A DNA stretch of 63,967 nucleotides, the filler included, from Hausera hauseri (Eukaryota), in assembly GCA_046269625.1 (NCBI GenBank). It is 10 parts of 10 records of this genome, joined end to end, with 100 filler letters (N's around TTAATTAATTAA, not from the genome) between each part and the next. Parts side by side here need not be neighbours in the genome. Positions count along the whole stretch, not along the records: positions 18,816 to 28,434 come from JBJURY010328826.1; 9 more parts are not named here. The stretch is one strand, 5' to 3'. Numbering within the stretch: the first letter of the stretch is position 1; the number at the start of each line of letters is the position of its first letter. This document shows, one piece after another, positions 12,846 through 49,219 of the stretch. The translations under genes were made by a program, and so were the position numbers. A model generated the notes under the pieces. The model made no database searches. It was not told the origin of the DNA and was given only the letters and a program-made list of their open reading frames with translations.

Positions 12846-13915
12846 ATGAATTCTCCACCAACTATCGACACCGCGGATACAACCACTACAAAAAAGCCAA
12901 TACCCATTCTTTATTGCTCCAAACCAAACCCACCACACTCTTCAGCCGATGCGAATCCCCATAGCAACACTATTAACACTCCTCACTGTACAGAATACTT
13001 CATCGATAACAAAAAATCTAGTAAGACGTGGCTTCATTTCCATCAACTCTGGTTCCAGTGCAATGTCATCACAGATTCTTTATCTAAAGCCCATAGCTTG
13101 CACTATCTTCTCCCGAATTCCATAAAAGCCTCAATACATAACTTGTTATAGATCTTCCAGCAGCCTGATCCTTATGCCCTATTATTCGACGCTGTGTTAA
13201 AGCAGACTGAACTTTCCATTGACTCCATAATGCAGCGTTTCTTTAACGAAAACGCAGTGGGCACACAAAAACCCAGTGACTTATTGCGCACTTTACTAGC
13301 ACACTTGCGTACTCTTGGCGTGACTAAGGAGCACAACCTTGATCTTCTACGCCATTACTTTTTCAACGCGCTTCCTCTTCAAATTCGAGCCCTACTTACC
13401 GTGGTGGGAAACTCCACACCGCTTGAAAAATTGGTCAAATTGGCCGACAGGACACATAATGTCCTACATAAAAATTCACCACCAGTCGTTTCAGCAGCAG
13501 TTGCCGCTAACGATAACACATCTATACTACAACAACTCAATCAGCTACGCACTGAAAACATTGAATTACATGCAACAATAAACAACATCAGTAATAAATT
13601 GTACTAATTGTTCCTGTCCCGACAGGGGGATTTTTCCGCTGCCCATAACCATTCTACGTCACGAAACCGCTCACCTTCGTCTGCGCCTTTGTCGATCTGC
13701 TATTATCACAGCATATTCAACGCTAATTATCAGAGGTGCTGCCTGGAATGTCAATTTTATGATAAGAAGTTTTTCTCGAACATTATTGTTTGCATTTACC
13801 ATGCAAGATTCAAAAATCAAGCACGTAAATGTATACATGGCTGTACCTTCAAATCTAACACAAACAACGGACGTACTACCTTCAATTTTCATAGTCGTCC
13901 CAGTTCATCTTTTCC

Positions 13916-13957
13916 AAAAAACTAAGTTCTCCGCCAGAAGTCACGGCAAACTCTGGC
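13916..13957 (+). promoter_or_regulatory. Putative -1 ribosomal frameshift signal at the gag/pol junction
   Basis: A_AAA_AAC directly before the gag TAA, followed by the stem GCCAGA...TCTGGC. The same layout occurs in copy C, and in copy B with one substitution. Confidence 0.75.
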
Positions 13958-16900
13958 AAAGGCACTCTTTTACATTCTGAACGCCGACACATCTCTTTTG
14001 CAGTCTTCATGCTAAAGGCAGCAATCACTGCCCATATGACTCAATGTGTTCATTTTCTCATCGACAGAGGGGCAGCAATTTCTTTATTACCGCAAACCTT
14101 TCCTACACAAAATTCTCCATTCAAACTTAAGCATTTATATACTGCTTCAGGCCAGCCGCTGCACATCTCGGGACGGCTACATTATCTTTCACTTTGCCTG
14201 GTTTCTCTGCGCCTTTCCGCTGGACGTTCACAGTTGCTAACATCCAGTCGGTAATCCTTGGATCTGACTTTCTCTCACATTACAATCTAGTGGTTGATTG
14301 CCGTCAGCGATGTCTGAGGAGCGGCACCGTTGGCGACATTTCTGGACATATTAATAGTATTTCGACTGGCGCGCGGTCTACCGGGATACGGAAGTCTATC
14401 TTAAAAATGTCAGCTAATAATTCGATTTTTTATAACAATAATTTGAATTTTCACAATAATAATTTAATTCGGAAATTTTTACACAACAACATTGATATAT
14501 GATCGAGATTTGATGTCAATAAGTGTGGTACTGCCACCAACGCTAACTCATTCGACGAAAATACCTTAGCTAACACCATTTTCAACTCAACCGTTTTTCA
14601 CCAAATTCCACTCGACTGCACATCACCTAACAACTTATAAATTGCATCCGCTACCACTCAAACCGTTCCACCACTTTCACCGAATCTCTCACAGCTACCT
14701 ACAACGTTATAACAATTCATCAACAAATCATGTCCACATGTACTTAAAAAAGATCGTACTTTCACTCCTGCCAACAGCACCCTACACCATATAGTCACAC
14801 AGCACCAACTTTTAATACGCCAAAAAGTACGGCATCTGTCACCTCGCCGTAGACAGGCCGTAGAAGCGGAATTTCTTGAGATGAACATTCCGGCATAGTA
14901 GGCCGTTCCAAATCTTCTTGGTCATCATCATTACATGTTGTTCTGAAAAAATCGGTACCTTTAGACCATGCGGTAACTGCCGACAGCTTAACAACCTGAT
15001 AACCATTATGCATATCCTTTGCCACTCATCAAGGATATCCTACATCGCCTTAACTCCACTACTATCTATTCGACCATCGATTTAGCTAAAGTCCACCATC
15101 AAATACCGGTAGCACCTGAAGATATCGAAAAAACCGCAGTAACTACTCCTTTCGGCCTCTACGAATACTTCTTTATGCCATTCGATTTACGGAATGCTGC
15201 ATAAACTTTTCAGAGGCACATTGATTCAATCCTTGCAGTTTTCTCGTTTGCACGCCCTTATATCGACGATATTCTAGTCGTTTCATCTTCAGCCAAACAG
15301 CACGAAGAACATCATCACGCAATATTCCAACGCCTTCACCACCATAATCTACAGATTAACTTCGACAAGTGCAGCTTTTTCAAGAAACGCATCAATTTCT
15401 TAGGTCACGTCAATACATCAAACGGTCATTCTCCACAATCATACCGAGTCGATGCCCTTAAAAACATACAACTGCCACGTACAACCACCGAAATGCGTAG
15501 CTTCCTTGGCACATTTCATTTTGTGCATAAATACGTCCTTTACTGCTCAGAATTAACGGCTCCGTTCGCACACCTAAGCGGCGGTAATAAACATCAGCCA
15601 ATTTAGTGGACACCTAAATTGGTTGACAAATTTGACAGGCTACGTGAATGCCTCAAAACTGTTGATATTCTTGCCTTTCCCAAGCCCGATACAGAGCTCA
15701 TCCTCACCACAAATGCATCAACCACTGTTGTAGGCGCTGTACTTCATCAGATTTACAAGGAAGAAAACCAACCCTTGGAATTCTTTTCTCGCAAACTAAC
15801 AACACCTGAAACATGATATTCCACATTTGATCGAGAACTATTGGCAATCGTGCTCGCTCTAAAGTATTTTCCATACCTACTTGTCCCTCGTTATTTTACT
15901 CTGCAAACTGATCATAAGCCTATGCTTAACGCCATGACCATGAAACACCCTTCCACACGCCAAGAACGCCAAATATCCTATTTGTCGACATTTAATTTCG
16001 ATATTAAACATATAAACGGAGTTAACAATTTAGTTGCTGATTTTTTATCTAGATCGGTTAGTACCATAAGTTTTTCTCCCATTTTTACGCAATAACAACT
16101 TCAGCAAAACTAGCCACCTCCAGACATGCTTAAGTCTTTCAAATCTTGCACATTTGTTGACGGCGTGGCTTTGGACACAGACAAGCATTTTATCATGTAC
16201 ACTCACTATACCATCCTGGTGCCAAAGCCAATTTTCGTCTCCTCCGTCGATAAGTAATATGGCCGTCAATGCGTTTCGATGTGAAGCATGGGTTAAGGAG
16301 TGTGTGGAATGCCAAAAATACAAAACAACTAAGCATTTAAAGCCACACTGTTCCACTTTCCCTGCACATCGCGTTTCGTGTCCGTGCATGTCGACATCGT
16401 TGGTTCACCTCTTCCAGACAACGGTCACCAATTCATCCTCACCATGATGGACCATTCCTCGCAATGGCCAGAAGCCATCCGTCTGCAGAGCACAAACACC
16501 CTACCATACCTGACGTTTACATTGGCACATGGATTAGCAGGTTTGAATCACTTGGTTTCATCATTAAGGACCAAGGTCTACAATTTGAATCCAACTTGTT
16601 TAAATCCATTGTTAATCGATTGGGGATCTACCACATTCATATAACGCCTTATCATCTCCAATCAAATGGCCTCCTATAATGCTTCCATCGGACACTGAAA
16701 ACGTCGCTAAGAATTTTTGCAGAGTCCAACACTAGTTGGACCAATCTTCTTCCCTTCGTTCTGCTTGACTGGTGGAACACTTCGTCTACCTCTATAAGAT
16801 GCTCATCTACTGAATCATTATTTGGAGCTCCTGTCTGGTCATCATTCGAACTAACCGCCCTAGACGACAGCCCACAGATGAGACAATACGGACGGCCCAA

Positions 16901-17758
16901 AATCACTTCGTCTAAGTCAGTGAGGACGCGTTTTTCAGGTTACTCCATAAAGATAAAACATACCTACCTGATGATTTATACACGGCTAAATTCGTATGAA
17001 CGAAGAATCAAGCTCCTTGCGGTTTCCAGCCGCGGTATCTGGGTCCCTACAAACTTTTACAACTGCACTCGCATAACGCCATCATATCCCATGACGGTAA
17101 AGACTTCACAGTACACATTACCAATCTAAAGCCTGCTTTCTTCGTCTCCGACACCTTACCAACCGACATGTCAACTTCTTTTCTTACTCCTCCACTAGCT
17201 GCTGCTACTACACCTACTGCTACACCATTTCTACCTTCCCCTTTCGCGCCTAATCTTGCTGCATCATTTCCTACACTTCCTTCTTCTATTACTATCACTC
17301 CTTCTGTTTCATCTTCCTCTTCCACTTCTTCACTTAACACAACTCCAATCTTTACTCCAACCTCTTCTTCTCCTCCTTTATTCACCAATACACTTTCTAT
17401 TACTCCTTCGTCTCCTAAAACTTTTCTCAATATCTTTAATCCTCATTCTTCAACAATCACTCTTCCTTCTTCACCGTTTACGTCACCTTCTTCACCTTCC
17501 TCTTCGTCTGCGCGCGACACAACATCTACACTAAAATCTACCAATTTTTTTATAAAATCTCAGTCTCTGCAAAGAGACAATTTGCACAAACACACAACAC
17601 GCAGAGTCACATTCAACCAATATAGTAGGGAAAAATCAGTCGAAGGTATTCAACGCCTTATACACACTAAGCTCAACTAACATGCATACTTTTTATTTTG
17701 CGTTTTTTCCTTTCTATCTTTTGTTCTTTGTAGATTAAAATTTGCCACGGGGCAGTGA

Positions 17759-17915
17759 TGTGATGCCCGTGTCGATCGTTGCCCTCCGGCCCATTTGGTT
17801 GGGCGCGGCCGGTTTCCCGCTGCCGGCGCGTCGGGCGCATAGACAGGCCCCGAGTTTTCGTTTTGCGAATGCCAATCTGTATTCCGTTATTAATTCCGAT
17901 AACAAAAAATTTCTT
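17759..17915 (+). repeat. 3' LTR of Gypsy copy A (right end approximate)
   Basis: Polypurine-tract-like ggggcagtga, then TGTGATGCCC...ggcccatttggttgggcgcggccgg. Homologous to the TG-starting sequence after the PPT in copy C. Confidence 0.75.
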
Positions 17916-18269
17916 CAGAAAAAAAACAGAACTTAGTCAAAGGGTTGAATTATTATTTAGAATCATTTTTTTATGTCACGAAAAAAAAGTTAGGTTAATA
18001 AACCTCATTACGTCTAAGAATAAACCCATTAGTCAATTTATTCAGGAATTAGTCAAGAATATTAAATAACAGTGATAAAGCTGTAAATTCAGAAATAATC
18101 GTGAAAATTTTCAAACAGTGGTTAAATTCAACGCTTGAATTCTTGGAGTTGATTTTAGCAATCAACAATTATATTTTATCTCAGTGTAAAATTAAATTAA
18201 TTCGAAGAGCCAATATTAGCCAACATTACCAGAACCACAAAGGTTCACTGTGGTCCGACGAACAGGTTT

Positions 18270-18500
18270 TATTCCAACCACTATCCCGAACAAATAAAAA
18301 ACTATGTCGATCTAATGTAATATTTAATGAAACTAAACGCAACACAGATAAAAATTGGAACTGTTGATTTGTGGTCTCCCTGAAATCGATAGTGCAACCT
18401 GCTACACAGTAACCCCATTACGTAATTTCGCAGAATTAAATCAAATTGCAATATTATTTGCCGATTGTATTTTAGAATATTTCTTCGGTTATAATTGAAT
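18270..18500 (+). pseudogene. Possible HECT E3 ligase fragment
   Basis: KLELLICGLPEID at about 18352-18390 resembles the HECT ELELLxCGxxEID motif. The flanks are badly decayed. Confidence 0.3.
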
Positions 18501-19029
18501 CAAAAAATTTATTACAATATCTTCTAATGATCATAATAGTTTATAGATTGTTTTAAGTGAATGCCTTGATAATGGGAGTTCTACCAAATAACAAATATAC
18601 GAATTAAAAATTATGTGACAAGTCCAATAACGAATATGCAATACTCAATGAGTTTTCCAAAACCCAAATTGATTCATTTGTCAATAAACAAGTGTTGTTC
18701 AGAAAAGCACGAAATNNNNNNNNNNNNNNNNNNNNNNNNNNNNNNNNNNNNNNNNNNNNTTAATTAATTAANNNNNNNNNNNNNNNNNNNNNNNNNNNNN
18801 NNNNNNNNNNNNNNNATACATTTCGATCAATTACTGCCGGTCAGTGGTGTATTGGATTTAATAGACAAGTGTATCTATTTGTACCAATTTTTTATTCCGA
18901 AGTTATCATTCGTGCACCAGAATTTGAAATCATCTGATACATACACATATGCTGAGCACAACACATCATGTACCTTGCTCAGTATTCCCAAATCCCCCTA
19001 CTCAGCCGGGGTAAATCCGTCGACCCCAT

Positions 19030-20645
19030 ACTATATACCATTTGATTCGTCGCATCATTACCTTTCTAATGATATGTGACGTGACTCCAGAATCACTACG
19101 GTTACTACGAAGTTATTCGGTTTTTCCATTTTCAGATGCTTTAAATCGCTCTAGCGCACAATTGATTTGTGCTCAATCTACTCATCACACCAACTCAATT
19201 TAGTGACCGATCAATAGAGTTTCACAAATACTACTCGATGTAGCATATAAATTTACTATATAGTATTTAGTTTCTGAGTAGTACTCAAAACAAAAAATTT
19301 TTTGAGCTCACTTTTCTGCTCATAACTCCGACTCCTTTATTCCAATAACGCCACTTTCTACTCCATTCGCCTCATCTCATCGAGACGAATCGAATGATGC
19401 CAAAACGAACTCCGTACGACTCCTACGGGCTGAAATATTCCCCCCAAAACCGTTTTTGCTTCGTCTTCCGCTCATAACGCCGAATGATACAGTCCGCCAG
19501 CGTCCATTCCAATATCATTCGACGCAGCACAATGTGACGTATCCAGCGATATCCGAACGGACTCAATCGGTCTGTTGTCGGCTGAGCTGTTGTACATTTT
19601 TGGAAATTTGCCTGAAAAACTTCAACTGTGTCAGAACCGGCATACCCTTTGTTGGTTCGCCAGAAGAGTTGTTCGAACATGTTATATATTGTTCGAATCG
19701 CGCTGCCATACCAAGTCCAACTGTGCAGAGAAACCGACAATATGGATTCTCGTTCAAACTCAATCCACAGAAAACCTCAAAAGTGCTCAAGTGCTTACTG
19801 CTCAATCGAAATGAGTCGGACGACCGAGATCATTGCACCGTTCGATTCGCCTCCTAATCGTCGTTCCAGCGATATGCAGACCATTTCACTATCCATTACC
19901 GTTCCGGAGTTTTGGTCATTTTCCCTGTTTTTGCCCCTTTAAATCGCTCTAGCGCACAATTGATTTGTGCTTAAACTACTCATTAAACTGAATCCATTTG
20001 CATACCAGTCGATAGATCTAACCTAATACTAATCGATGGAATCGATGAAAACCCTGTGTGATGTGAGGATTTTGAGCAGTGCTCATTTCACACTTATTTT
20101 TTTCTCCGTTTTCTGCTCATAACTCCGGCCTATACACACCACTCACGTCACTTTGTGGTCCATTCGACTGCGCTCATTGAGACGAATCGAATGACACCAA
20201 AACGAACTCCGTACGACTCCTACGGGCTGAGACATTGACTTTCGGGCGGAAAACCGGAACTGTGCCATAACCGGCATACCTTTTACGGGCTATCCTAAAG
20301 ATTTATCTCTACAATCCTTATACCATTTGAACCGCCCTCATGTGCCTAGGTCAACCGTTAATAGAAAATTGCATTACTTTTCTTCAGTCCCACGCAATTC
20401 CCCAAAAACCACTTTTTCTTTCAGGTCAATTTCCCAGTGTCCTTACCGCATTTTCTCAATTTTTTAAAGCCGAACACACAAGGACACCGCTCTTGCGCAA
20501 CTTTTGCGTCATTTCCTGCCTGGAAATAGGACAACTTCCGGTCAAAATTTCGTAAATTTCACCGGAAGTGACGCAAATTTACACCGGAAGTTGCGCAATT
20601 TCCCGGGGTGGGGGTCTGTGCCAGAACCGGAAATTTCACCCTACT
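19030..20645. repeat. Non-coding array of imperfect direct repeats, probably the subterminal region of a DNA transposon
   Basis: ttaaatcgctctagcgcacaattgatttgtgct at 19141 and ~19939. gagacgaatcgaatga..ccaaaacgaactccgtacgactcctacgggctga at ~19382 and ~20179. A CCGGAA cluster at 20535-20635. Confidence 0.6.
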
Positions 20646-20696
20646 CTGATAATAAATTAAAACAATTCCGTAATTTAATACAAAGTGTTAATAAGA

Positions 20697-21600
20697 CTAA
20701 ACAAGGTCGACAATTGTGTACATTCCACTGGTGTAATTGGGTTTTGACCAATCCGCAGCAGGTAAGCCAGAAATCGAGTATTGTCGAGCACATGTTTTAT
20801 TAAAATGGGGCAGAAGTTCGTCAGCTTCATCGGGCTTACGTCTCATGTAAATCAATGCATCCGTACCGAAACCCTCAACAGAACTCAAAGACAAATCACC
20901 ATTAAAGTAACGCGCATAAAGTCGACTCAGCGGAAGTCCATAACCGTAACCAGCCATAGGCGAACTATTCGATGAAAGATTTGTGTTGATGGCAGCACCG
21001 GCCGTTGTGAAAGTGTATTTGAAAACCTTGTCCATCCACGAACGTGGAATACCTCTACCATCGTCGGTAATTCGAATAGTTACATTTTCTTTAGATCCAC
21101 AAATTAACTTTAATTGCTGGTAATTTATCACTGTTCGAATGGTATTCCATAACGGCTCTTAATGCATTCTTTATAAGTTCAAATACCATGTGAAACAAAT
21201 GAGCAGTAACGTAAGACAGATAAATGCATTTCTGATAAATACATTCTTCAAGAGACCGAGCATTATTACAGTGCCAAATTTTGTACGATTCGCTCTTATT
21301 ATATATTTTTTGGAATATGATTGACTACCGTTATTTGTATTTCAGGAGCACTTCCATAGTAATGCCGACAAAGGTATAGCGCTTTACTGTATGCATCCTC
21401 AACTACTTCAAGGATATTAGTTGAAGGGTCAATGATTCCGATAAAACGCCGATTTTGGTTTAGTTGAGGTCCATAAAGGGTCACATGCTGATTAATTAAC
21501 ATTCTGATACTAATACGATTTAGATAGAAACGATCCAGAAAATATTGTAGCTGATTTTCTGTACAAGCATCGATTCCACGAACTCGTTTTACTTCTATAT
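20697..21600 (-). pseudogene. PDK: Pyruvate dehydrogenase kinase, 5'-truncated, intronless, two frameshifts
   Basis: QYFLDRFYLNRISIRMLINQH, HLFHMVFELIKNALRA, DDGRGIP and PMAGYGYGLPLSRLYARYFNGDL. Confidence 0.92.
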
Positions 21601-21920
21601 CACTCATTTGTAGTAGATTTAATTGCAGCATCTTTAATGATATAATTTCGCTCCGTGATAAACTTTTCATCTTCCAAAGCTCCGAGTACAGCATCGTGGA
21701 CCGCTAAAAACATATTTCGGGGATTTACTGTTTTATACATGACATTGCTGTCAATCAGCATAGATCTAACGGCTGCTCGAACGTTAGCAAGAAAGATACA
21801 TATCCCAGCCAATTCGTAGTCATGAATAACTTGTATCAGAGTTCTAACACCAGAGTCAATAAAACAACACGTTGAAAATAAATGATTATATGGTTATATG
21901 GTTTCCAGTCTCTTATGATT
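21600..21920 (-). pseudogene. SLC26 anion transporter STAS-domain C-terminal fragment
   Basis: FSTCCFIDSGVRTLIQVIHDYELAGICIFLANVRAAVRSML...MFLAVHDAVLGAL matches the SLC26 STAS pattern. Confidence 0.75.
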
Positions 21921-24900
21921 AGATAAGAATGCTAAAAGCGTGATCACGCTGAGAATACATTGTCTCCTCGTCAGGATTTCCCATGTTTGGCTTGAGTGAT
22001 TGACATAGTAGTTGGTTTCATCATCATTATGCATCAAATCGTCGGCAATTACAAAAACAAATAACAATGAAAGAGGAAACAATAACATTTTATTTACAAG
22101 TCACAAAAAATTAAAGAAGCACGACCTCGTTGGGCACAATATCATCCCCTGTGGCAAAGCAAGGACTAAAGAGGTAAGAAAAGGGAAGATGTGTAGAAAC
22201 TGTGTAGATTGTCTAAGTGGTCTATTGTATGAATAAGACACTGTACCCCTGCAGTGTTAATCTCCTTATTGTAGGTACTAAATGTGACTGATTTGCGCAT
22301 ATTCAATGTCTTAGAGTCTGGATGCGGGGAAGATTGAGGCAAAACAATGTCGGATTTTGGCGCTGAAGGTGTTGTGTCGTTCAGTGGCAAAAAAGAAGGT
22401 GGTGTAGGAACTGAAAAGGTACAAGGTGCAGGAGTCAAAAAAGGAGTAGAAGATTCGATTTTTGGGGTGTCGTCTACGAAAAATGCAGGCTTGATGTTGT
22501 TGATATGCACCTCTAGTTCCTTACATCTTTGGAAATAATAGCATTGAGAGTGCAACTGAATGAGTTTGTAAAGGCCAAAATACCGTAGCTGAAAACCGCA
22601 AGGTGTCTCGTTCCTCAACCAGACAAACTTTGCAGAATAAATATTGTTGGGTAGGTACGTTTTATTGTTGTATTATTCTGCAAAATGAGTCTTTACTGAC
22701 TGAGACAAAATGATTCTGTGCTGTTCGGATAGCTTCGTCTGTAGGTGTATCTTCCAAGGCAGTTAACTCAAATTATGAACGTACAGGCGTTCCGAATAGG
22801 GCTTCCGTAGGTGAACAACCAGTAGAAGTATAAGGGGTGTTACGCCAACCCAGAAGAACCAACGGAAGAAGAGTAGTCCAAATGCTATTGGATTTTGCGA
22901 GGATTCTCAATGACGTTTTTAGTGTTCTGTGGAATCTCTCTAGAAGACCATTCGATTAGAGGTGATACGGTGATGTGTGTATATGGCTGATTCCTAATCG
23001 GTTAACGAGAGATTTAAACAAATTGGACTCCAACTGAGTACCTTGGTCCGTAATAATGAATTTAGGGGATCCAGATCTGCTGATCCAATTGCGTATGAAA
23101 ACGTCGGCTATTGTGTCAATGTTAGTGTTCCGTAGGCGGACGGCTTCTGGTTAACGTGAGGACCGATCCATCATGGTCAAAATGAACTGATGACCGTTGT
23201 CAAGAGGAAGAGACCAACGAGATCAACATGAACAGACCCGACACGTAATGTGCAAGGGAAATGATATAGTGGTGGCTTCAAATGTTTGGTGGTTTTAAAT
23301 TTCTGGCAGGCCATGCACTCCTTAACCCACGCTTGCACATCAAAACGCATTGACGACCAAATTACCTGTCGGTGGAGTAAACGAAAGGTGGCCTTAGCGC
23401 CAGGGTGGTTAAGCGAATGTACACTGTTAAACGCTTGACGTTGTAAAGGTGGTGCGAAAATTATTACGGAATGACCTGGTTTAGAAGTGTCTAAAGCCAC
23501 ACCGTCAACAACTGTGCAAGATTTAAAAGAATTAAGCATGTTCTGAGGTAGTTGGTTCTGTTGGAGTTGTACTTGAGTGAAGATTGGTAAAAATTAATCG
23601 AACCAACCGTCCTCGATAAGAAATCGGCAACCAAATTATTAATCCCGTTAATATATTTTATGTCGAAGTTAAATGTCACAAATATAATGTTTGTCGTTCT
23701 TAGCATGAGAAAGGATGTTTCATAGCCATGATGTTTAGCAAGGGCTTGTGATTGGTCTGTATGGTAAAACGGCGAGCGACAAGTAGGTGGGAGAATTGCT
23801 TTAAAGCGAGTACGATGGCCAATAATTCTAGATCGAACGTTGAATATCTAGTTTCAGGGGATGTTAGCTTACGAGAGAAAAATTCTAGCGGTTGATTTTC
23901 TCCTTTGTATATTTGGTGAAGCAGAGCACCTACCGCAGTGGCTGAAGCGTCTGTAGTAAGGATGAGTTTCGCATCAGGCTTAGGGAAAGCGAGAATGTCG
24001 AGGGTCTTAATTCCTTCGCGTAGCTTATCAAACTTATCAACCAGTTCAAGTGTCCACTGGATTGGCTGATGTTTTCTTCCTCAGCTTAAGTGTGCAAATG
24101 GTGCGGTAAGTTCAGAGCATTACGGCACATACTTGTGAACGAAGTGCAAAGTTCCCAAAAAGTTTCTTATTTCTGTTGTTGTTCGAGGTAGCTGCACGTT
24201 TTTTAGGGCTTCAACTCGATCGGACTGAAGCCAGTGACCTTCAGCAAAACTAATGTGACCAAGAAAATTTATACGCTTCTGGAAAAGTGACATATGACGA
24301 AATTAATCCGCAGGTTATGCTGGTGTAAACGTTGAAATATTGATCTGAGGTGTTCCTCTGTTGTTGGGTCGAAGAGGAAACAACTAATATGTCATAAATA
24401 TATGGTTAGGCATATGGGAAATCAGAAAGGATAGCATCAATGGAGCATTGAAAAGTCTGAGCGACATTCAGTAGGCCGAAAGGCATGTACAGATATTCGT
24501 AAAGGCCAAAAGGAGTAGTTACAGCTGTTTTTTCGATATCTTCAGGTGCCACAGGAATTTGGTAGTAAGCCTTGGATAAATGAAAGGTAGAATAAATTGT
24601 GGTGTTATTAAGGCGGTGTAAGATATCCTTAATGAGTGGTAGCAGGTACGCATCCATTATTGTCAAAGTATTTAACTGACGATAATCACACAAGGTCGAA
24701 AAGTTCCATCCTTCTTTTGAACGACATGTAATGGAGACTTCCATGGGGATTTGGAGCGACGTGCAATACCGGAGCGTTCGATATCTAGAAATTCGGCTTC
24801 AACGGCCTGTCTACGACGAGGGGACAATGGACGCACTTTTTGGGGGACAGGTGTTTGATGTTGTGTCACAATGCGATGAAAAGTGGTGTTTGCTGGAGTA

Positions 24901-25130
24901 AAAGACCTGTCTTTTTTAATTATTCTAGAACAGGATATGTTATTGAATTGCTGCACACTTGCAGGTAATTGTAAAAAGTTTGGTTCGAGCGAGATGGTTT
25001 TATCGGTAACTGTTGCAATTTGGACATTATTTGGTGATCTAAAATGAAGTGGTATTCGTTGCAGGATGGTATTATTAAAGATGGTATTGTAGCTGGTAGT
25101 TTTATCTAATGATTTTGCAGTGTAACGGAA

Positions 25131-25649
25131 TCACTCATCATCGCCGTGCAAACGCCAATCGTCAGTAATATTGTTCTTCAGTAATTTATAAAACATGGTT
25201 TTAAGAGGCTCTTTTGGAATGCCCGTCAATTCATTATTATCCACGCACAACACTTTTAGATCTGACAGTTTTCCAAGAGGTTTCGAAAATTCCTGAAATT
25301 CATTTCCACCCAAGTCTAGCAGTTCAAGACACTAAAGTTTAGCAAAGGAATTCGGAAGAGTTTATAAACAATTATCTCTCATTTCCAGCTCCTGCAAAAC
25401 GGAAAGATTTCCAAAATCATTCGGTAATTCAGTCAACAAAATGTTATTTAAATTAAGAATCGAAAAATTCCGCAACGAACTGAATCCCTCTGGCAGTCTA
25501 TTAATTTGATTGGCATCAAGAAAACATTCTTCGATTGATCTCGCATTTCTCATTACTTCATCTGGCACTGATAACAGATTGCAGTGACGCTTATCAATTA
25601 TTTCCAATTGACTAGCACAAGTGATAAGAAAAGGAAAACTCTTTTTCAT
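25131..25649 (-). pseudogene. scrib: scribble/LAP-family N-terminal LRR fragment inserted in pol of copy B
   Basis: MKKSFPFLITCASQLEIIDKRHCNLLSVPDEVMRNARSIEECFLDANQI...LELLDLGGNEF. DKRHC and LDANQ are Scribble N-terminal hallmarks. Two in-frame stops. Confidence 0.85.
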
Positions 25650-27393
25650 AAAGTTTGATCAAATTACATACAAATTATGAAAATCGCTTGCAAAGGCGGA
25701 TATGAATTCAAAGAATTCACGCTAAATAAATTTTATTTCAAAATTCACCATAATGTATTTTCCATATTTAAACAAAAAAAAATTTAACATCAAAAGTTGC
25801 ACATGCAGATCACCAATTGGGTGAATGGGGGCACCATACAAGGTACCATGATTGTAAGAAAAAGGTTTGTTCAAAGGTTTTTTTAATATCGGCTTTCGAG
25901 TAGCATTCACCCGTACGACAGCCGAAATGGTATCGGTGTGATTGAATCGCTCCTTATTGCAACCACTTGTTAAGCAACGTAGTTTACATTCGACGAGGAG
26001 ATTATAGTGCGAAAGGAAATCGGATCCTAAAATGGCTGTCTGGACGTTTGAAACGGTAAATGTCCAGTGAAACATTGAAGTAAATGTCGGAAGGGTAAAA
26101 GAAAGCATACAAGTACCGGAAACATGTAGCGGTTGTCCGGAAGCTGTGAATAGAGGTTTATAGTTGGATGAAATGTGTTGAGTTGGAAAAGTGAGCGGCA
26201 GTAAGGAAATCGCTGCACCTGAATCGACGAAGAAGTCTATGTGGGGGGATGTTGGTAACGTAGTTACTGCTTTTACTGTAAATACGGCGAAAGAAAGTTT
26301 TCGACTGATAGAAATTGAAGAATGGCCTTCGCCAGGACTCGCCGTAAGCTCTGGTGGCGGAATTAGTTTCTTGGAAGTGGTGAACTTGGACGGCTGTTAG
26401 AAGACGAGACAGTAGGTCCAACGTCCGTATGCTGTGCGCTCCTTTTAAAGGTACAACCAGGAATACACTTATGTGCCTCATTCTTAAATTTTGAGTGGTA
26501 GATGCACATAGGGTTGATAACTTGATACTTTTGGGTGTAAAAACGGCGCCCGAGATGACACTTTTGTGCTTTATGAGGAAACCTATCGTGGTAGAAACAG
26601 ATCAGCGATCGCGCAGGAGGAGGTGACCAACCTTCATTTAATCTATCATTAATATTGTTTATTGTATTATGTAGGGCTGCGTTTTCGGCTCGTAACTGTT
26701 GAATTTGATATTCTATAGTGTTGTCGTTTGCTGTAAACGCTGCAGAGATGATAGGCTGTGTGTTTAAATGTAAACTCTCGTACGTTTTGTCCGAAAGTTC
26801 GGCTAACTTATCTAGTGCCATCGATTCCTCGACGACGGTAAGCAGGGCTCTGATCTGGATCGGCAATTCGTTTAAAAAGTAACGTCGTAAGAGATCGGAA
26901 TTATTTTGTTTCGTAACGCTGAGTGTTTGCAGTTGAGCGAGACAGGTTCTGAGAAAATCTGATGGTTTTTGTGTACCCATAGCATTATCATTAAAGATTC
27001 GATGGACGATGGAATCCGTGAGTTTTAAAACTGCATTATAGAGATGGGTATACGGGTCGGATTGTTGAAATATGTCTAAAATATCGTGAAGGGAAGTTTT
27101 TGCTGTGTTTGGTAAGAGGCAAAGTAAACTATGAGCTTTGGCAGATGGATCAGTAATGTTGTTAGACTGTAGCTAGAGTTAGTGAAAGTTAAGCCAGGTT
27201 TTGCTGGACTTTTCGTGATCAATAAAGTATTCTGTGCATTGAGAAGAAGTGTGTTTTTAGCTGGCGGGATGAAAAATGTATGACTGGTGAAAGTAGATGG
27301 CGTGGTTACGGTCATTGATTTTTGGTGAAAAGTGAAAGGTGATGGTTTAGAGGTAGTTTTATCAGTAGTGTCAATGGTGGGTGAAAATTCCAT

Positions 27394-27618
27394 GCCACCA
27401 CAAATACGAATGTGTACGTGAATAACGACATAAATGGATGAAGGAGCAAAGGGTTGCAAAAATTGACATTAATTACAGGTAAGTTGTTGTAAGTGAGGTG
27501 AAAATCAGGAAAATTAGCAAAGTGTAGCACATAATTGTGCAAGTAATGTGTGTTTAAAAAACACGTTGTATCGAGTGTGAGAAAATGGCGATTATTTAGG
27601 AAGAATAAAAAGGAAAGG
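27394..27618 (-). CDS. Ubiquitin-like leader upstream of gag in copy B (one frameshift)
   Basis: SFLFFLNNRHFLTLDTTCFLNTHYLHNYVLHFANFPDFHLTYNNLPVINVNF / LQPFAPSSIYVVIHVHIRICGG|MEFSPTIDT. Confidence 0.65.
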
Positions 27619-27719
27619 GTCGGTGTTGGACCTAGTGGTTGACGTGGTGACGTAACGGACAGTGGCGTAGGACCTACTGACGTTGGACAGACGGTCGGAC
27701 AGTCGGTCACGTTGTAATG

Positions 27720-28400
27720 TACCCGAAACTCAACATATTTGTTGTGCGTACTGTGAAGAATCATTGCTAAAGAATCGGCATAATCTCTAATATTTAAATC
27801 ACTTTTATGGGTCTGAACAATGTTAAATCTTGTAAGAAATATATTTATTCTCATAAAGTGAGAAATTACCATAAGGCCTGCTGTCTTTATGTCATTTTCT
27901 CTTAAATCATGTGTGATGAGCTGTAATGTAGCAGCAAGGTAGTCAGCAATTTTTATACCGCCTTTGCATGTTGGTTTGCAACATGGCACACGCGACCTCA
28001 GTAATGAACGATTAGTCAGAAAACCTGCACAAAGTGAATGGACAGTATCGCTAAAAATCAAATGGTTGTCAATATTGAGGAACTATAAGCGTTGTGTGAC
28101 CTGTAGTGTTGGCCAACGCTAGAATTCCACTGCAAGGTATGAAGTTACACCGGGTGCTGAGACTAGTCAAACCGTTTCCTGGCTTTTCATTTTCAGTTCC
28201 ATCGTGTGAATTTATGGGCTACTTACAAATACCATCGGCGATATGGCCTAACCCGACGTTCCATAGAGAAATATGTTTGATATTTAACAACTCCAAATGG
28301 CGAATGACATTGAGCAAAGAGCCTAATCGGATACCTGTGGACCGAAACATACGAAGTGTCAAATATAAATCGCACAAATAAAGATTTCATATGAGAGCTG
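27720..28400 (-). pseudogene. PPP1R37: PPP1R37 (LRRC68)-like RI-type LRR fragment, intronless, with a stop and a frameshift
   Basis: LTNRSLLR...KPTCKGGIKIADYLA...DLRENDIKTAGLMVIS parallels PPP1R37 SNRSVLRL...KLTCEGAVAVAEFIA...DLRENEIKTGGLMALS as I recall it. Confidence 0.75.
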
Positions 28401-29879
28401 ATGAAAGTATTATTGGGTTATATGAACAAAAATCNNNNNNNNNNNNNNNNNNNNNNNNNNNNNNNNNNNNNNNNNNNNTTAATTAATTAANNNNNNNNNN
28501 NNNNNNNNNNNNNNNNNNNNNNNNNNNNNNNNNNCGTTTAAGTGACTGTTGAGCTGTTGATATTGTCGGTATTTGTTGGGCTGATACGAATTCCTTCACC
28601 ATATTTATCATTTCCCTATGATCTTGTAATATTGACTTTTTTGATTTGGTGAACATTGACAGATGATGCGGGTGTTGTCTCCGGAATTCTGGGAATCGGA
28701 CTTCAGATATAATTTCGCATTCAGGGCATATATAAAATTGAACCCCATCATATGTAATGCCGTAACATTTCTCCATTACAGCATTACATTTATCCGTAGC
28801 ATGCACTTTGTTTGTGCAGTAATTAAATTGACAATTCTAAAAGGAAATATGTAAATTAAGTATAAAAGTTAAAATGAAACATACAATTTTGTAAAGTAAA
28901 ATAATATTTCAAAAATAATAATAAATGTTAGATATTATGATAATTGAACAAACGAGATCAGGACGTTGTTTTGTTCGTTTTCCGACAAAAGGCAAACCAA
29001 ATTCACATAATATATCCTCGAGTAAATCTGTCGCAGGCAGAATTATTTCTTTGATTTTAAATTCGGTAGTTAAAATACCTGGTCAAACTCATCTAGACAA
29101 TAGAATGAACAGTCCGAAATTTCGGTTATTCTGCAAGCTGACACGCAACAAACTGGCTGAATACATAGAATCCTATGAATAATTATAACATGATCCCACA
29201 AAGAATTTTCAGATCCGCTCATATGTAAACATATTTAATGCCAAAAGGCCAGAAATTGAAATTGAAACGTAAACTCCTCAAAAAATGGCGAAATCAAATT
29301 CGAATTTAAATTGAAAAAAATGCTTATTTAAACAAGACCATATTTTTTACACTTTACAACGTTACAAGGAATGATATGTAAAAAGAGTTTGGCAAATTCG
29401 GCACATCGTAAAATGAATTGTTATTGAATCACATAATCAATTGATGTACAAAATTGGATGATGATATAGGATTTCGTTAGCAGACTTCTGTCGATCGGTA
29501 ATTTACAACTGATAATTGACAATCGAAAACCGTTGATGATTTTTGTCATTTCGCAAAATGATGATAGATTAACACCGGATGAATTGCGAATGTCCTTTTC
29601 AAAACATGAATACCGGCGACGTGTTTATTGCTGAATAGTGTTCGACGATTACTAATATTTATGAATAAATAGGCAATTAATACGGTGACCGTGTTTTCTT
29701 TTATGTCAATCATTTTGTCATTCAGATCTGATATGTTGTGAATAATTTGAACAACTCCAGTGTTTCCATAGTGTTTTGATAAGCAACGAACTGATGAAGC
29801 TGAATTTAGCCGTCAAACGCCATGAGATACTGATTCGCTATCTAAAATCTCAAACTTTTATCTAGTTTCCAGAAACGTA

Positions 29880-32800
29880 AACAGGCAGACATAAAAGTGA
29901 AATAAATGAATTTTTATCCTAAAAAATGTAAAACATTAAATTCTTAAGGCAAAGAGTCGGAAGATTGGGTCCGACTATGGATACGACGCGACGATAAGGG
30001 ACGCCCGGCTGTGCCCAACCAAATAGGCCAAAGGGCACCGGTTGCAGTGGCACCACATTATCCCCCACAACAAGGTTAAAACCATAAATAGTAAAAGATA
30101 CAGAAAGAAAAAATTGCCAAACGAAAAGTGTCTGTATCAGTTGGTCTTAGTGTGAACAAAACGTTGGGTGCCTTCTACTGATTTTTCCCTGCTATACATG
30201 CTAAATGTGACTCTACGTGGTTTGTCTGAAGGCGGTGTGCTTGCTTGCAGAGTTTAAAGTTGGGGAAAAATTGTCGGATTTTGGTGTAAATGTTGTGTCT
30301 TGCAAAGACGAGTCACAATGAAGAGAAGAAGAAGGTGAAGGGGGAAGAGAGATTGTTGGAGACGGATGGTTGGAGGTGTTCAAGAGAGTGTTAGAAGGCA
30401 ATGGACTGACAAAAGGTGTAGTGGCGGATGAAGGAGGAGAGGCAAAAATTGGAGTAGAAATTGGAATTGTGTTAGTCGAAACAGTAGAAGTAGAAAATGA
30501 AACAGAGGGAGTGGTAGAGATAGGAAGAGAGATACGAATAGAAGTAGAAGGTGTAGAAAATGATGAAGCAGAAATAGGAGCAGAAAAAGGAGGTGGGACA
30601 GGTGTAGCAATAGATATAGTAATAGCAGGAAGTGTAGGAGTGAAAAAAGAGGTTAACGTGTCGATTGGTGAAATGTCGTCGACAAAAAGGCGGGCTTTAA
30701 GTTGGTAATATGCACTGTAAGTTCTTTGCCGTCTTTGGAAATAATAGCATTTTGCGAATGCAGCTGTACCAGTTTATAGGGCTCATATACCGCGGCTGAA
30801 AACCGCAGGGAGTCTTATTTTTTAGCCATACGAAGTTTGTTGAATACAAGTCTTTGGGTAAATATGTTTTGTCTTTGTGGAGCAACCTGCAGAACGAAGC
30901 TTTGCTGACCGTGACGAAGTGATTTTGCGCCGCTCCTATCATTTCATCTGTATGAGTGTTGATTATGGCAGTTAGTTCGAATAGTTATCGTGCAGAAGCT
31001 CCAAATAAGGCATCAGTAGGTGAGAATCCCGTGGAATTGGACAGAGTGTTCCGCCAGCCGAGCAGAACAAACGAAAGAAGGTTCGTCCAACTAGTGTTGG
31101 ACTCTTCCAGAATTCTTCGTGACGTTTTCAATGTTCGGTGAAAACGTTCTAAAAAGCCATTCGATTGAGGGTGATAAGGCGTAGTATGTATGTGATGGAT
31201 TCCCAATTGGTTAACAAGGGATTTGAACAGGTTGGATTCAAACTGTGGACCCTAGTCTGTGATGATTAAGCAAGGTGATCCGAACCTGCTAATCCATGTG
31301 CGAATGAAAACGTCAGCTATGGTATCCGTGTTTGTGTTCCGCAGAGGAATGGCTTCAGGCCATCGCGAGGAACGATCCATCATGGTGAGAATGAATTGAT
31401 GACCATTGTCTGGAGGAAGAGGGCCGACGATGTCGATATTCACGGACTCGAAACGTGATGTGCAGGGAAAGTGGAACAGTGGTGGCTTTAAATGCTTAGT
31501 TGTTTTGTATTTTTGGCAAGCCACACACTCCGTAACCCATGCCTGCACATCAGAACGCATTGACGGCCAAATTACGTGTCGGTGGTGTAAACGAGAAGTG
31601 GTTTAGCACCAGGGTGGTGTAGCGAATGTACGCTGTTGAATGCTTGTTGTTGTAGAAGTGGTGCGAGAATTATTATGGAATAACCTGGTTTGGAAGTGTC
31701 TAAAGCCACGCCGTCAACAATTGTGCAAGACTTAAAAGAATTAAGCATGTCCTGAGATGGCTGGTTCTGTTGAAGTTGAGCTTGCTTAAAAATTGGTGAA
31801 AAATTAATCGAACTAACCGACCTAGGTAAAAAATCAGCAACTAAATTATTAACCCCATTAATATGTTTTATCTCGAAGTTAAATGTCGATAAGTATGATA
31901 TCTGTCGTTCTTGGCGTGTGGAAGGATGATTCATAGCCATGATATAGAAGTAAGGGTTTGTGATCGGTTTGCATAGTAAAATGGCGAGCGACAAGTAGGT
32001 GCTCGAAATGCTTTAAAGCAAGAATGATTGTTAATATCTCTAGATCAAACGTTGAATATCTGGTTTCAGGGGATATTAGCTTGCGAGAGAAAAATTCTAG
32101 AGATTGATTTTCTCCTTTGTAGATCTGGTGGAGTACAGCACCTGCCGCAGTGGTTGAAGCGTCTGTAGTAAGGATGAGTTCTGCATCAGGCTTGGGAAAA
32201 GCGAGAATGTTGACGGTCTTAATTCATTCGCGTAACTTATCAAATTTGTCTACCAACTCAAGTGTCCACTGGATTGGCTGATGTTTTTTGCCACCGCTTA
32301 AGTGTACAAATGGCTCTGTCAATTCGGAGCAATATTGTACATATTTGTGTACAAAGTGTAGTGTACCAAGGAAGCTGCACATTTTGGTGGTCGTACGTGG
32401 TAACTGGATATTTTTAAGTGATTCAACTCGGTTTGTTTGAGAAGAGTAGCCATCTGGTGAAATAACGTGGCCTAAAAAGTTGATGCGCTTTTAGAAGAAA
32501 TGGCATTTTTCGAAATTGATTTGGAGATTATGGTGGTGAAAGCGTTGGAATATTGCGCGAATGTGTTCCTCGCGTTGTTTTGCCGAAGACGAAACGATTA
32601 GAATATCATCCACGTAAGGGTGCGCAAACGGAAAATCTGAGAGAATCGAATCAATATGTTGCTGAAAGGTCTGTGCAGCAATTTGCAAACCGAAAGGCAC
32701 AAGCAGATACTCATAGAGGCCAAAAGGAGTACTGACAGCAGTTTTTTTCTATGTCTTCTGGTGCTACCGGTATTTGGTGGTATACTTTGGCCAAATCGAA

Positions 32801-33995
32801 AGTTGAATAAATGGTAGTTGAATTAAGGCGAAGCAGGATGTCCTTGATAAGCGGTAAGGGGTACACATCCATGACTGTCAAGTTGTTTAACTGCCGGTAG
32901 TCACCGCATTGTCTAAAAGTACCGTCCTTTTTTGTACGACGTGTAAAGTTGACGACCAAGGAGATTTGTAACGGCGTACAATTCCGGAGCGTTCCAGTTC
33001 AAGAAATTCGGATTCTACAGCCTGTCTACTATGAGGTGCAGTGGTCGTACCTTTTGGCGTATTGGTCGTTGATACTGTGTAATTATGTGATGTACAAACG
33101 ATCTTTTTTAAGTATGAGTAGGCATTATGTAGTAACAAATTGCTGTAAAGTTGTCGGCAACTATGGTAGATTCGGTGGTGATGGTGAAACAGGTTGAGTA
33201 GTAGCGGATGCGATTTGTGAATTTTTTTTTATATGCAGTCAAGTGGTATTTGGTGCAAGATGGCCGAATTGAAAATGGTGTTGGATGAAGTGATTTCGTC
33301 GAGTGAATGAACATTGGTGGCAGTACCACAATTATCGAAATTGAACCTCGATCAAATATCAATATTATTATTTAAATATTTACGAATTGAATTATTGTTA
33401 TGGAAATTCGAATTACCTATTGATTTTCCCAAAATTGACCTCCGTGTCTCAATCGACTGCACGGTAGTCGAAATGCTATTATCATGCTCAGTAATGCTGC
33501 TAGTGATGCCGCTCCTCAGACATCGTTGACTGCAGTCAACCAATAAATTATGTGATAGAAAATCGGACCCTAGAATTGCCGTCTGGACGTTAGCAACTGT
33601 GAACGTCCAGTGGAAAGGTGAGGGAAATTTTGGTAAAATGAAGGATAATTTAGACGTGCCAGAAATGTGGAGCGGTTGACCTGAAGAGGTGTATAATAGT
33701 TTAATTCTGAATGGTGAATTTTGTACAGGGAAAGATTCTGGTAATAAAGAAATCGCTGCACCTGTATCAATGAGAAAGTCAACGGATTGCATTGTAGGAG
33801 CTGTGATCTCAGCCTTTAGAGTAAAGACAGCAAAAGAAGTGTGTTGGCATTCAGAAAGTGAAGTAATGCCTTTGCCAGAATTTGCCGTGACTTTTGGCGG
33901 CAAATTTAGTTTTTTTTTGAAAAGGTAACTATGACGATTATTAGTAAAAAAGGTAGTACGTCCGTCGTTCGTGTCTGGTTTGAAAGTACAGCCTG
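29880..33995 (-). mobile_element. Gypsy LTR retrotransposon copy C, 5'-truncated within the gag knuckle; 3' LTR starts at 30057
   Basis: FLIDTGAAISLLP, PYVDDILI, FESVNIDIVGPLP and TTPYHPQSNGFLERFHRTLK. PPT gggggataa is followed by TGTGGTGCC. Confidence 0.95.
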
Positions 33996-34254
33996 GAATG
34001 CATTCACTGTGTTAGTAGATCGCGTCTCTACCATCCCGACTTCTACATCACTTGATGATTGAAAAGTTGAATTATCCATATTTATTATAAAAGTTGATAT
34101 AACAATTAACTCATTCACTCATTAAATGATTCTTCTTTTCATCCTTTTTTGAATNNNNNNNNNNNNNNNNNNNNNNNNNNNNNNNNNNNNNNNNNNNNTT
34201 AATTAATTAANNNNNNNNNNNNNNNNNNNNNNNNNNNNNNNNNNNNNNNNNNNN

Positions 34255-36180: not shown

Positions 36181-39100
36181 TTATCTCAAACGCCAATGTC
36201 CGTATGCCCAACTCTTATTTCGTCCCACTCACTTTCGCTTGTCATCGTTGAATGACAAAGCAACCTTTTTATTTGTTATAGTATACAGCTGGTGCTCAAT
36301 CGATCGTATGGTCGTTTGAGACACAACAGCCTTTCCTTCTCCGTCTTCTTATTCTTCTTGTCCATCATAGACACGGCGATAATCACCGTGATTTATTTCC
36401 ATCTGTTTCAGCTGGATGCCTTTTGCCCGCACTTTCGACCCACAGTTCGTCAGGAGACTGTAACACTTTGGGCGCAAAAATATCCATTCCCTGTATTGAA
36501 CCCGGCCTTCACTTTCGTCCTAGAAGCAGCCGATTTTGTTTGTTATCGCGCTGCTGTACAGTGGATGGTCTGATGGGTAGTTGGACGTGCCCAGTAGTCC
36601 ATCTGACATCATTTGTCGGAGCAGCTAGTCCCAATTAATGTTTTTCAGCTCAAGGAGAAAGCTGTCTGTGTCACCGGCAACGATACTGATCTAACAGCCG
36701 CCGCCGAACATTTGCCGGTAACGTGCCAAGTCGCGATACTGGAGCTCGTACATTCGCAACTTGCTCAGGTCCAATACCACTTGTCCGATGTAGCTTGGCT
36801 GATCCAGTACGACTTCTTCCCGGTTTAGAAGCACGGCGACCAATCCATCGGCAATGTGCATTGATCGCCTGAATTGAGCCTTGCTGGTGTATGTAACTAG
36901 TCGTTTTTCGTTATTGCACAGGCGCACATTGAGCCGCTTCCTCTGATTTTCCACTGTTTCCCCGTACAGTGAATTGTTTTTTAGCTTGTAATAGTCCTTT
37001 TCAAACTTTGTACAAGCTGCGGCTCGTTTCCCGGAATTTCCATCAATGTACGCCTTGAATATCGGCGCCTGATTGAAGCGGATTGAACGATGCAGCTGTG
37101 TGAGGCGTACACTGAGCTGCATGTAAAACTGCAACAGACGCCAATGAACCACGTGATTCGATTTTTGTTCATGTGTCATGAGCAGTTTCTTTACTTTTAA
37201 GCCGCCGGGTGGACATTCGCTAATTGGTGCAACCGGCAGTTCATCCAGAAAGTCATGAGGCTCATCCGGTACCAAGAGATCAACTTCCATTAGGTAGCCG
37301 ACTGAGCTGCTTTCTGTCGTGTTTGCTGATGCTGCTGACAGACTGTCCGGCAATGTATCAATTCTTGTTTGTCCTTTATCCATTCAAATGAACCGTACGG
37401 CAAGGGTTGCGAAAGCGTCCAGCCGTACAAGTTATTAATATCGATGTACAACATTAACGTTGTATCATCGTCATCACTGGTTACGTGATGCTTGTTGACA
37501 AATGTCATGCCGCCACAAATGCCAACGTCAAACAGTCGGTACAGTTCCGGGTCTTGCAGCAGCTCAATGTCCCGATCAAGTGACATTAGTGCCAATGCCC
37601 AACTCATTCCCGGTATTGAGTAAACGTTGAGCAGTTCCAACCTATCTTCCTCCAACGCTTTAGGCCGAAATGTCTGAAACACATCGGCTAATAGGTACAC
37701 ATCGAGCTTTAGATACTGAATCATGTAGTCCAACATGTTTCTACAACGGAGCTATGTCCAAGATTCCTGTGCTCTGTGGTATTCATCTTCTGTGATACCT
37801 GTCCATCGCGGCGGTAATTCTTCTGTTGTCCGGAGTCGCTCATATGACACGGCAAAGTCATACGGGAATATGCCTTTTCTGCTTGCAATGTGTGGGGAAC
37901 TGCATCAGTGTTAGCAGCACATCCGGCAAGGCATTTACGAGCTTTGCTACAGACTCATTGAGGAACTGCAATGAGTCAAGAAACCGTACCTGAAACTGAT
38001 TTATGCGTGCCAATAGGGACAGGTACTTCTCCATCGTTGTTGGGATTATGGATAGCTCCCAGTGCGGAAATCCGTTTATGGCCCATTTCAAAATATGGTG
38101 AGTCATAACCTCGAAAGTTATGAAATATCACTGGCAGGAATGGCCGCACCCGTCTTGCCAAATTGCATGCGTTGCATCTGCTCCCAATTATTGACCGGTA
38201 AAATGGTCGTGATCCGGTACGAGCCGTTCCGGTAATATTTTGTGGCACAGGTAACATTCATCGGTGGCTGCAAACGTCAGGCGTTCATCTTCATCTGTCC
38301 AAATCAGGGGTTTTGTGCTTTTATTGCGATACCATGTGAGATTTCCGTTTCTACTATCATTTCCAAACGCTGCAGGAAATCATGCACACAGGTCCAGCCG
38401 TGAAAGGCGTAATACATATTCCGGACTGTCTGTTTTTGACCAATCTGTGAACCTGAATTCCTTTTTGACGGGCATGACATACATTGTGGTTTCCGATGAA
38501 TATTGTCTGCACAGAGTCACGTTTCTCCCGTGATGTTGACGACCTGAATCCATGCAGACATACAGGACACCATTTACAATTTACACGCTTTTTGATGAAT
38601 TGATGGTGATCCATGTTAAGTAGTCTGTCCAAGTTGGTTACTGCCACGTAGTGAAATTTATCTGCTTGTTCCAGTAGCAACAAATTTACTACTCAGTGAC
38701 CATTTGAGTTCCGACTTTGATAGAGTATATCCATATGAGGGTTTTGTAAATTTCTTCATCCGCCGGTATTTTTAGAACTGTGTTGTACCGGAACACGTTG
38801 ATTGTCAGTGTCGGATTACGCCGTTCAAAAGCCTCAATAGATTTCAGTTTCATCGTCATCCCGCTTTCATCAAAATCCAATTCGGAAAAATATTTCTGAT
38901 ACTGTTTTGGACGAGATGCACTATGTCTGTCAACTTCGTCGTATTTCAATACCGCGAGAATACTGTAAAGAAAACAGTATTTATCGTTGGTATTTTTTAC
39001 ATTCAATACCGCCAGAGACTGCTTCAGAGCTGCAGGTGTCGGTATGAATGATCGTCCAGACAAATATTTCATATCACTCGACTTCGTTATGATAAAGCCG

Positions 39101-39572
39101 AGAGTGCCAATTCGTATAATTCGCTATCAATTACCCTTTTCGGTGTAGTTGGGCGATTTTCTCTTCGAGCTTTTCTCCTACGTCGGCACTAAAATCTTCA
39201 GAATACGGAACGACTCGATGTGACAAGTACCATTGTTTCCTGTCACCTTCTAAATTTTCAAATTTGGCAAGTACATAATATCGCACTTTGCAGTGGTGTT
39301 GTTGGAATTTGGCCACCTCTATTTTCAACCGGTTACGCACATGAGCGGGTACATCCTTAAATTGCGCTGCTGTTTTCGCCGTCATGTCCACCTTCATGTC
39401 CACGTATGATCTGTTCAGATCGTACTTCATGTAATGTTGGGAATATTGGTCTCCTGTTCTTCTTGTTGATGCTGTTCTTCCTGCTGCTGCTGCTATTGCT
39501 GGGTACTGTTTCTGATTAAGTCGTCAGGACTTGTTGAGGCCTGACGTTTCTTACTGGTTGTTGTTGTTGTTG
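36181..39572 (-). mobile_element. Polinton/Maverick-type protein-primed family B DNA polymerase, decayed (copy 1)
   Basis: CFLYSILA, FHNFRGYD, FLDSL, YLKLDVYLLADVF, YIDINNLYG, KLKNNSLYG, VAGDTDS and C-terminal LSFNDDKR...AYGH. Many frameshifts. Confidence 0.92.
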
Positions 39573-49119: not shown

Positions 49120-49219
49120 NNNNNNNNNNNNNNNNNNNNNNNNNNNNNNNNNNNNNNNNNNNNTTAATTAATTAANNNNNNNNNNNNNNNNNNNNNNNNN
49201 NNNNNNNNNNNNNNNNNNN

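Follow-up and report, generated by a model that had tools for sequence, protein, structure and literature searches.

Several described systems share part of the organisation reported here. The elements we analysed belong with the Ty3/gypsy (Metaviridae) elements that have a DUF7041 Gag, with which they share the capsid part, the CHCC knuckle, the PR-RT-IN order, the purine tract and the LTR start. We take these relatives to be CsRn1-like elements; the clade relationships that we give come from Gag trees. Unlike those relatives, the elements described here carry two tandem knuckles, an in-frame ubiquitin-like (Ubl) domain ending in Gly-Gly (GG) and, ahead of gag, host cargo that runs to kilobases; we noticed no tRNA primer site in them.

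Captured ubiquitin is known from cytopathic pestiviruses (BVDV Osloss, CP1 and CP Rit), where it is embedded in the polyprotein, serves as a processing signal cleaved by host UCH enzymes and sets the N-terminus of the downstream protein, as outlined in PMC8310069. The pestivirus ubiquitin is a recent insertion into an RNA virus before NS3, whereas the domain described here is old, clade-wide, strongly diverged and located before Gag, and its cleavage is predicted. The cellular proteins SDE2, FAU (Fubi-S30) and UBA52/RPS27A are likewise composed of a Ubl, a GG and then the released protein, and the cleavage of SDE2 by USP5 is described as requiring the same GG together with upstream Leu/Arg (PMC13572447). 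In these cellular fusions the Ubl is N-terminal and has its own Met, but here it is internal and follows variable sequence. LTR-mediated retroposition (Tan et al. 2016, PMC5131818) and maize Bs1 provide examples of sense, spliced mRNA pieces from several parents within LTR elements, often in frame, and the capture of mRNA by template switching is known from the same source, in whose main text the word ubiquitin is absent. In contrast to those cases, the cargo here precedes a gag-pol that has been retained, to which it is joined through the Ubl. The nearest described case is the internal SUMO-like domain of Burro/GYPSM1, a gypsy-like element of planarians whose polyprotein includes a Ubi2/SUMO-like domain (PMC6431247). 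In Burro a Gag of a different type stands at the N-terminus and the domain follows it, and as described there it has no role in di-Gly release. We found no description of a Ubl-GG-Gag fusion in the literature searched, with Repbase, GyDB and most subscription papers outside the scope of the search.

Copies of the element in the window

The window, by which we mean the whole stretch of 63,967 nt that was analysed, consists of ten parts of one large, fragmented eukaryote genome joined end to end. Three of these parts contain copies, all of them decayed, of a single Ty3/gypsy family, here called A, B and C (Table 1). The family has gag followed by the PR-RT-IN order, and its Gag is of the DUF7041 type with a CHCC knuckle; the copies in this genome fall short of the Pfam cut-off, which several relatives exceed. 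A purine tract and a 100-nt LTR start are present at both the 3' and 5' positions of family elements. The LTR 3' end, the tRNA primer site and a target-site duplication were not found in the short contigs searched.

Table 1. Features of the three element copies, in window coordinates
Feature	Position	Strand	Remark
Copy A, part of the window	12308-18715	+	separate contig from copy B
Copy A leader, plus Met codon	12639..12848	+	ends LRIRDG
Copy A Gag-pol and 3' LTR core	12849..17860	+	core at 17759-17860
Copy B, part of the window	18816-28434	-	
Copy B variable upstream modules (cargo)	27732..28434	-	common to a subset of B-type copies
Conserved B-type stretch 5' of leader	27612..27731	-	open in leader frame
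Copy B Ubl leader, N-terminal 53 codons	27453..27611	-	
Copy B leader, C-terminal 19 codons	27394..27450	-	past the frameshift, ends IRICGG
Copy B Gag	26366..27393	-	further frame changes
Copy B pol	22475..26348	-	protease, reverse transcriptase, integrase; decayed
Copy B 3' LTR fixed start (core)	22030..22142	-	behind purine-rich tract
Host-derived pieces behind copy B 3' core	20468..22029	-	partly shared with other contigs
Copy C, part of the window	28535-34154	-	
Copy C Gag end, pol and LTR core	29960..34005	-	leader lies beyond the stretch

Our results show that copy B is a dead member of the family that marks a real, clade-wide Ubl-GG-Gag architecture. The earlier note had reported a leader with an intact di-Gly and a following Met in this copy, and both peptides that it quoted are indeed found. 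On the minus strand FLFFLNNRHFLTL begins at 27611 and DFHLTYNNLPVI comes next in the same frame, while VIHVHIRICGG is read in a different frame; the Gly-Gly codons occupy 27399-27394 and the Met codon 27393-27391. The frameshift between the two parts is real, but comparison with B-type siblings that read straight through places it near 27452, about six codons later than had been proposed. The GG of copy B is intact. Two residues before it the copy has a Cys, at a position that is Arg in 40/40 unbroken readings and at which our search pattern for leader tails permitted R, C, H or Y. Behind the GG come the Met, a linker rich in S/T/P, a DUF7041-like capsid part (E 0.005, below the Pfam cut-off) and two CHCC knuckles. 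We regard this copy as dead because of the further frame changes in its Gag.

The host-derived pieces behind the 3' core of copy B include a HATPase_c match (3.4e-11) within decayed kinase-like coding sequence. This kinase coding sequence (20468-21760, minus strand) is nearly whole, decayed and apparently intronless. We take it to be a pyruvate dehydrogenase kinase, presumably preceded by a STAS-like piece.

Other parts of the window contain a satellite with a unit of ~146 bp (39673-48443) and two uninterrupted LINE endonuclease-RT frames of ~1000 codons each (1144-4131 on the plus strand and 55294-58323 on the minus strand). Pieces of Type B DNA polymerase, a Tc1-like transposase and a plectin-repeat frame are found at 36694-39523, 48617-49168, 49692-52034 and 60297-61709.

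The leader family in this genome

The leaders of copies A and B are identical at 117 of 199 aligned bases. Their protein alignment scores 51 with an X at the break, which is better than shuffled controls, as 17 of 5000 shuffles reach this value. When the last six residues are left out the score is equalled by 84/5000 shuffles, and for the part before the break alone by 64/5000. The pairwise likeness is therefore real but modest, and it is the family data that carry the case. Copy B had been called an independent copy, and this does not hold. A and B are sister subfamilies (Gag branch support 99) that inherited their leader, not independent captures.

That the leader is a family trait and not a chance capture is borne out by the many matches found for each type, with 150 scored matches of 1638 candidates for the A-type and 150 of 1566 for the B-type. 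The linkage to gag is nearly complete, Gag lying downstream in 84 of the 85 loci with at least 450 nt of downstream sequence (97 loci examined; the exception is L037). In 30 B-type loci, selected by DNA likeness, the leader frame has 5 stops over 2156 codons, where the other two frames have 95 and 123. In unbroken leaders, which are a selected set, dN/dS is 0.29 within the A-type (29 copies) and 0.44 within the B-type (9 copies). Between the two subfamilies synonymous sites are saturated (pS 0.75), with a pN of 0.43. The depletion of stops, the dN/dS values and the saturated pS beside this pN argue that the leader is coding and constrained, less so than the capsid. Selection at the protein level, as the earlier note had supposed, is thus supported by the stop depletion and the saturated synonymous sites, although the constraint is weaker than in the Gag core (pN/pS in B-type loci is 0.61 in the leader frame, hardly lower than the 0.65 of the +1 frame, 1.00 in the remaining frame and 0.30 in the Gag core). 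The GG tail is found in 35/40 unbroken leader readings and is kept with synonymous variation among copies.

Identity of the domain

No match to the ubiquitin family was found by sequence in Pfam or PDB among 38 leaders of this genome. The A-type model (pLDDT 69.9) has the order beta-beta-alpha-beta-beta-beta, and in a wide search 17 of its first 20 rows are, by title, ubiquitin, SUMO, ISG15, Fubi or another Ubl, with modest scores (best Z 5.8, rmsd 2.8 over 68 aligned positions). The B-type model (pLDDT 70.3) has the same order of elements. It finds SUMO (Z 4.8) and Fubi (Z 4.7), tied with unrelated folds at 5.1-5.3, and Foldseek returned no row under E 1 for it. Leaders from other genomes provide a stronger link. 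With P0033 and P0068 left out, a profile built from them gives 48 bits for host ubiquitin, 25.0 for copy A and 20.4 for copy B (X at the break), and 0/200 shuffles that kept the tail scored as high as either copy. One member of the tandem-knuckle clade described below, P0033, has a domain that matches Pfam ubiquitin with E 3.7e-23 and is ~70% identical to host ubiquitin, and weak ubiquitin matches below the Pfam cut-off are found in P0013, P0014, P0015, P0017, P0028, P0031 and P0034. As P0033 sits among kin with far-diverged domains, its ubiquitin domain suggests a re-capture.

The leader domain ends in a tail of the form hydrophobic-Arg-x-Arg/x-Gly-Gly. The earlier note had asked for a cellular SDE2 or other Ubl donor. 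Host SDE2 is present, with the junction RRLLGG|KGG, as are host ubiquitin fusions and, presumably, a NEDD8-like gene. Over the last 35 residues of 39 leaders, the best scorer is SDE2 in 9 cases, ubiquitin in 7, NEDD8 in 6 and none in 17; two B-type leaders compared with the three candidates go best with none. Likeness to the SDE2 tail region is highest in P0065 (z 13.5) and P0046 (z 10.1), and copy A reaches z 4.8. The SDE2 body (KGG...) is absent behind the leader, where Gag stands instead. SDE2 is not indicated as a single donor: the host has the gene, but the clade members split into SDE2-like and ubiquitin-/NEDD8-like domains. The host SDE2 itself (L081:197-301) apparently has only ~35 residues in frame before its GG, so that either its UBL is short or an exon further upstream is missing.

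Distribution in protein databases

For the wider distribution we used a profile search of 1.84 billion proteins and examined the best 150 of 4197 matches; word-based protein searches had returned P0001 and P0003 only. Among these best 150 matches there is a group of Gags with two CHCC knuckles. Where at least 90 residues precede the capsid part of such Gags, the GG tail is found by pattern in 25/27 and by eye in the other 2. The single-knuckle Gags among the best 150 have no Ubl, with the exception of P0068. In a Gag tree of 58 rows, which omits fragments, two near-duplicates and most lower-ranked single-knuckle matches, one group of 36 is formed with local support 91 (not starred), and in 33 of its members a domain with a terminal GG stands immediately ahead of Gag. 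The remaining three (P0019, P0022 and P0037) cannot be scored for the domain because their protein calls begin at a Met that is 22-28 residues ahead of the capsid part. The trait extends far beyond this genome. The GG tail and the hydrophobic pattern are conserved throughout the clade, and the remainder of the domain varies between ubiquitin-like and SDE2-like. Directly behind the GG, 35 proteins (near-duplicates included) have S (15), M (5), G, N, A and T (3 each), Q, V or K, and Pro in 0/35.

Captured sequence upstream of the leader

Similarity across the whole family stops ~350 nt before the GG, and further 5' we find modules common to subsets of copies. In four loci, chosen for length, single frames of 500-1260 codons link unrelated pieces of host genes to the leader (L031, L082, L083 and L084). 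In copies chosen for their long frames, the pieces found in frame include a kinase, SET and PH (L031), a UBR box (L082), ATG7 and AIRS (L083), dynein and ABC1 (L084), SYF1 and LIM (L037) and RB (L042), and host-gene pieces in frame with the leader also occur in other genomes (P0005, P0009, P0015 and P0016). The ATG7 piece of L083 continues through two host segments that match it and have AG and GT at their edges; if these segments are the host gene, the piece derives from spliced mRNA. In copy B the cargo is open in the frame of the leader up to 28082.

Several measures describe how open the cargo is. Among loci taken regardless of length, no other frame stays open for longer than that of the leader in 13/17 A-type and 17/23 B-type cases. 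Between 21 and 70 codons upstream of the leader anchor, which was set upstream of a slipping T run, there are 15 stops in the leader frame against 49 and 49 for the A-type, and 39 against 106 and 81 for the B-type; this frame-specific depletion vanishes beyond 70 codons. Breaks per 600 nt number 1.73 (A) and 1.85 (B) in the cargo, 1.26 and 1.75 in Gag and 5-6 in antisense. Allowing for decay, the cargo appears to be about as open as Gag. Under a null model of junctions in random phase, the openness of the cargo is reached by 221-281 of 5000 simulations with two junctions and by 792-1303 of 5000 with one, the copies in these simulations not being independent. The null model is beaten weakly, and the pattern is no more than suggestive of selection for cargo in frame.

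Of the 28 A-type LTR cores listed, 15 have an ATG 15 nt past their last hairpin. It stands before several different cargos, although 10 of these 15 share one cargo. This ATG is a candidate translation start. At 17759-17900 and in L113-L142 the 100-nt GC-rich LTR core is followed by ATG and differing host-like cargo, in both 5' and 3' positions. Four loci (L008, L093, L188 and L189) contain head-to-tail tandem units, in which pol end, purine tract, core, cargo, leader and Gag follow one another with one shared LTR core.

Three other readings of the upstream region were rejected. An OTU-like protease in the upstream frame of copy B has no Pfam match, the Atlas search of this cargo yielded no more than an LRR-like lead, and this part of the copy is an exchangeable module. 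A ribozyme or a pseudoknot of the IRES type ahead of the leader has no Rfam match, and 36 A-type copies yielded one hairpin in which 2/14 pairs are changed on both sides. A reading of the leader-proximal cargo as part of the LTR is not supported, as 28/28 places with downstream DNA (of 30) continue into the leader.

Proposed release of Gag

We consider it probable that host deubiquitinases cut after the GG and release Gag from a longer precursor, judging from the sequence pattern and from the analogy to the cellular and pestiviral fusions. Translation would begin 5' of the domain, in many cases at the cargo or inside it, giving a cargo-Ubl-Gag precursor that a USP/UCH-type host enzyme would cut after the Gly-Gly. 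Gag would thereby gain a fixed N-terminus whatever had been captured upstream, and because cleavage fixes this N-terminus the element could tolerate repeated 5' capture of mRNA pieces. Cleavage before Pro is poor, and the varied but never Pro residue behind the GG in the database proteins fits cleavage rather than a start codon. Within this genome, initiation at the Met behind the GG is conceivable, since a Met is found there in 39/40 unbroken readings.

The main competitor to cleavage from a cargo-bearing precursor is a local start for the domain, followed by SDE2-like cleavage that serves only to give Gag a chosen N-terminus or to aid folding, the cargo being passive. We think this unlikely for the family as a whole, but for B-type copies a local start is a real rival. 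The conserved stretch 5' of the B-type leader contains 2 stops in 1158 codons of the leader frame against 68 and 31, and a Met codon lies in it, 23-26 codons ahead of the domain, in 17/27 copies, though not in copy B. The junction simulation is not decisive here, and several leaders (P0065, P0046 and copy A) resemble the SDE2 tail region. At the matching place of A-type copies, by contrast, ATG is found in only 8/42 (ACG in 13 and GCG in 13), and both subfamilies keep the frame open further upstream. None of the 40 unbroken copies has a Met within 10 codons ahead of the domain. Furthermore, at least 60 residues precede the domain in 22 of 35 database proteins, and the new N-terminal residue of Gag is not conserved.

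It seems more doubtful still that the domain stays on Gag, or acts once freed, as a ubiquitin mimic, for instance as a matrix-like adaptor, a proteasome or ESCRT handle, a decoy or a modifier. The domain is kept whole, at ~70-76 residues, and the internal SUMO-like domain of the Burro polyprotein, as presented in PMC6431247, offers a parallel. But since only the tail and the hydrophobic pattern are conserved while the rest turns over, the domain suits a cleavage signal more than a binding surface. The idea that the leader is an old neutral piece of captured mRNA is largely refuted, for although these elements often capture such pieces and the leader is less constrained than the Gag core, it is fixed at one position in 33/36 clade members whose Gags are often only ~25% identical to each other, is open in its own frame and keeps its tail through synonymous variation.

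If cleavage by host deubiquitinases is true, a whole LTR clade would rely on these enzymes, beyond its own protease, for the maturation of Gag. Such reliance on the host would be new, and it would form a natural counterpart both of the laboratory ubiquitin-fusion technique and of ubiquitin capture by pestiviruses. It would also explain why kilobases of captured coding sequence stand before gag in an element with its own gag-pol, and it predicts a steady supply of translated host-domain chimeras, a testable route to new genes.

Recurrence in other LTR elements

The association of a Ubl with Gag is not limited to the tandem-knuckle clade. P0068, which falls outside this clade, has a Ubl-GG before a single-knuckle gypsy Gag, together with RING cargo. 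In addition, a BEL/Pao family in this genome (L216:7-2862, L222, L214 and L218) has a clear ubiquitin domain (E 1.2e-19) in front of a DUF1759 Gag. The junction reads GG|SE, and as many as 498 residues precede the domain in frame. Most of the top 30 ubiquitin matches of the genome belong to this family. A tentative generalisation, which may well prove wrong, is that LTR retrotransposons have repeatedly made host ubiquitin-family domains into pre-Gag linkers cleaved by deubiquitinases, in the tandem-knuckle gypsy clade, the P0068 lineage and BEL/Pao. Such linkers would have been refreshed from different host genes (ubiquitin and SDE2), and they would free Gag from upstream translation and allow open-ended 5' shuffling of host pieces into translated chimeras.

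Weak ubiquitin-like matches are also found inside open frames of more than 3000 codons in three other contigs of this genome (C466577, C84435 and C66660).
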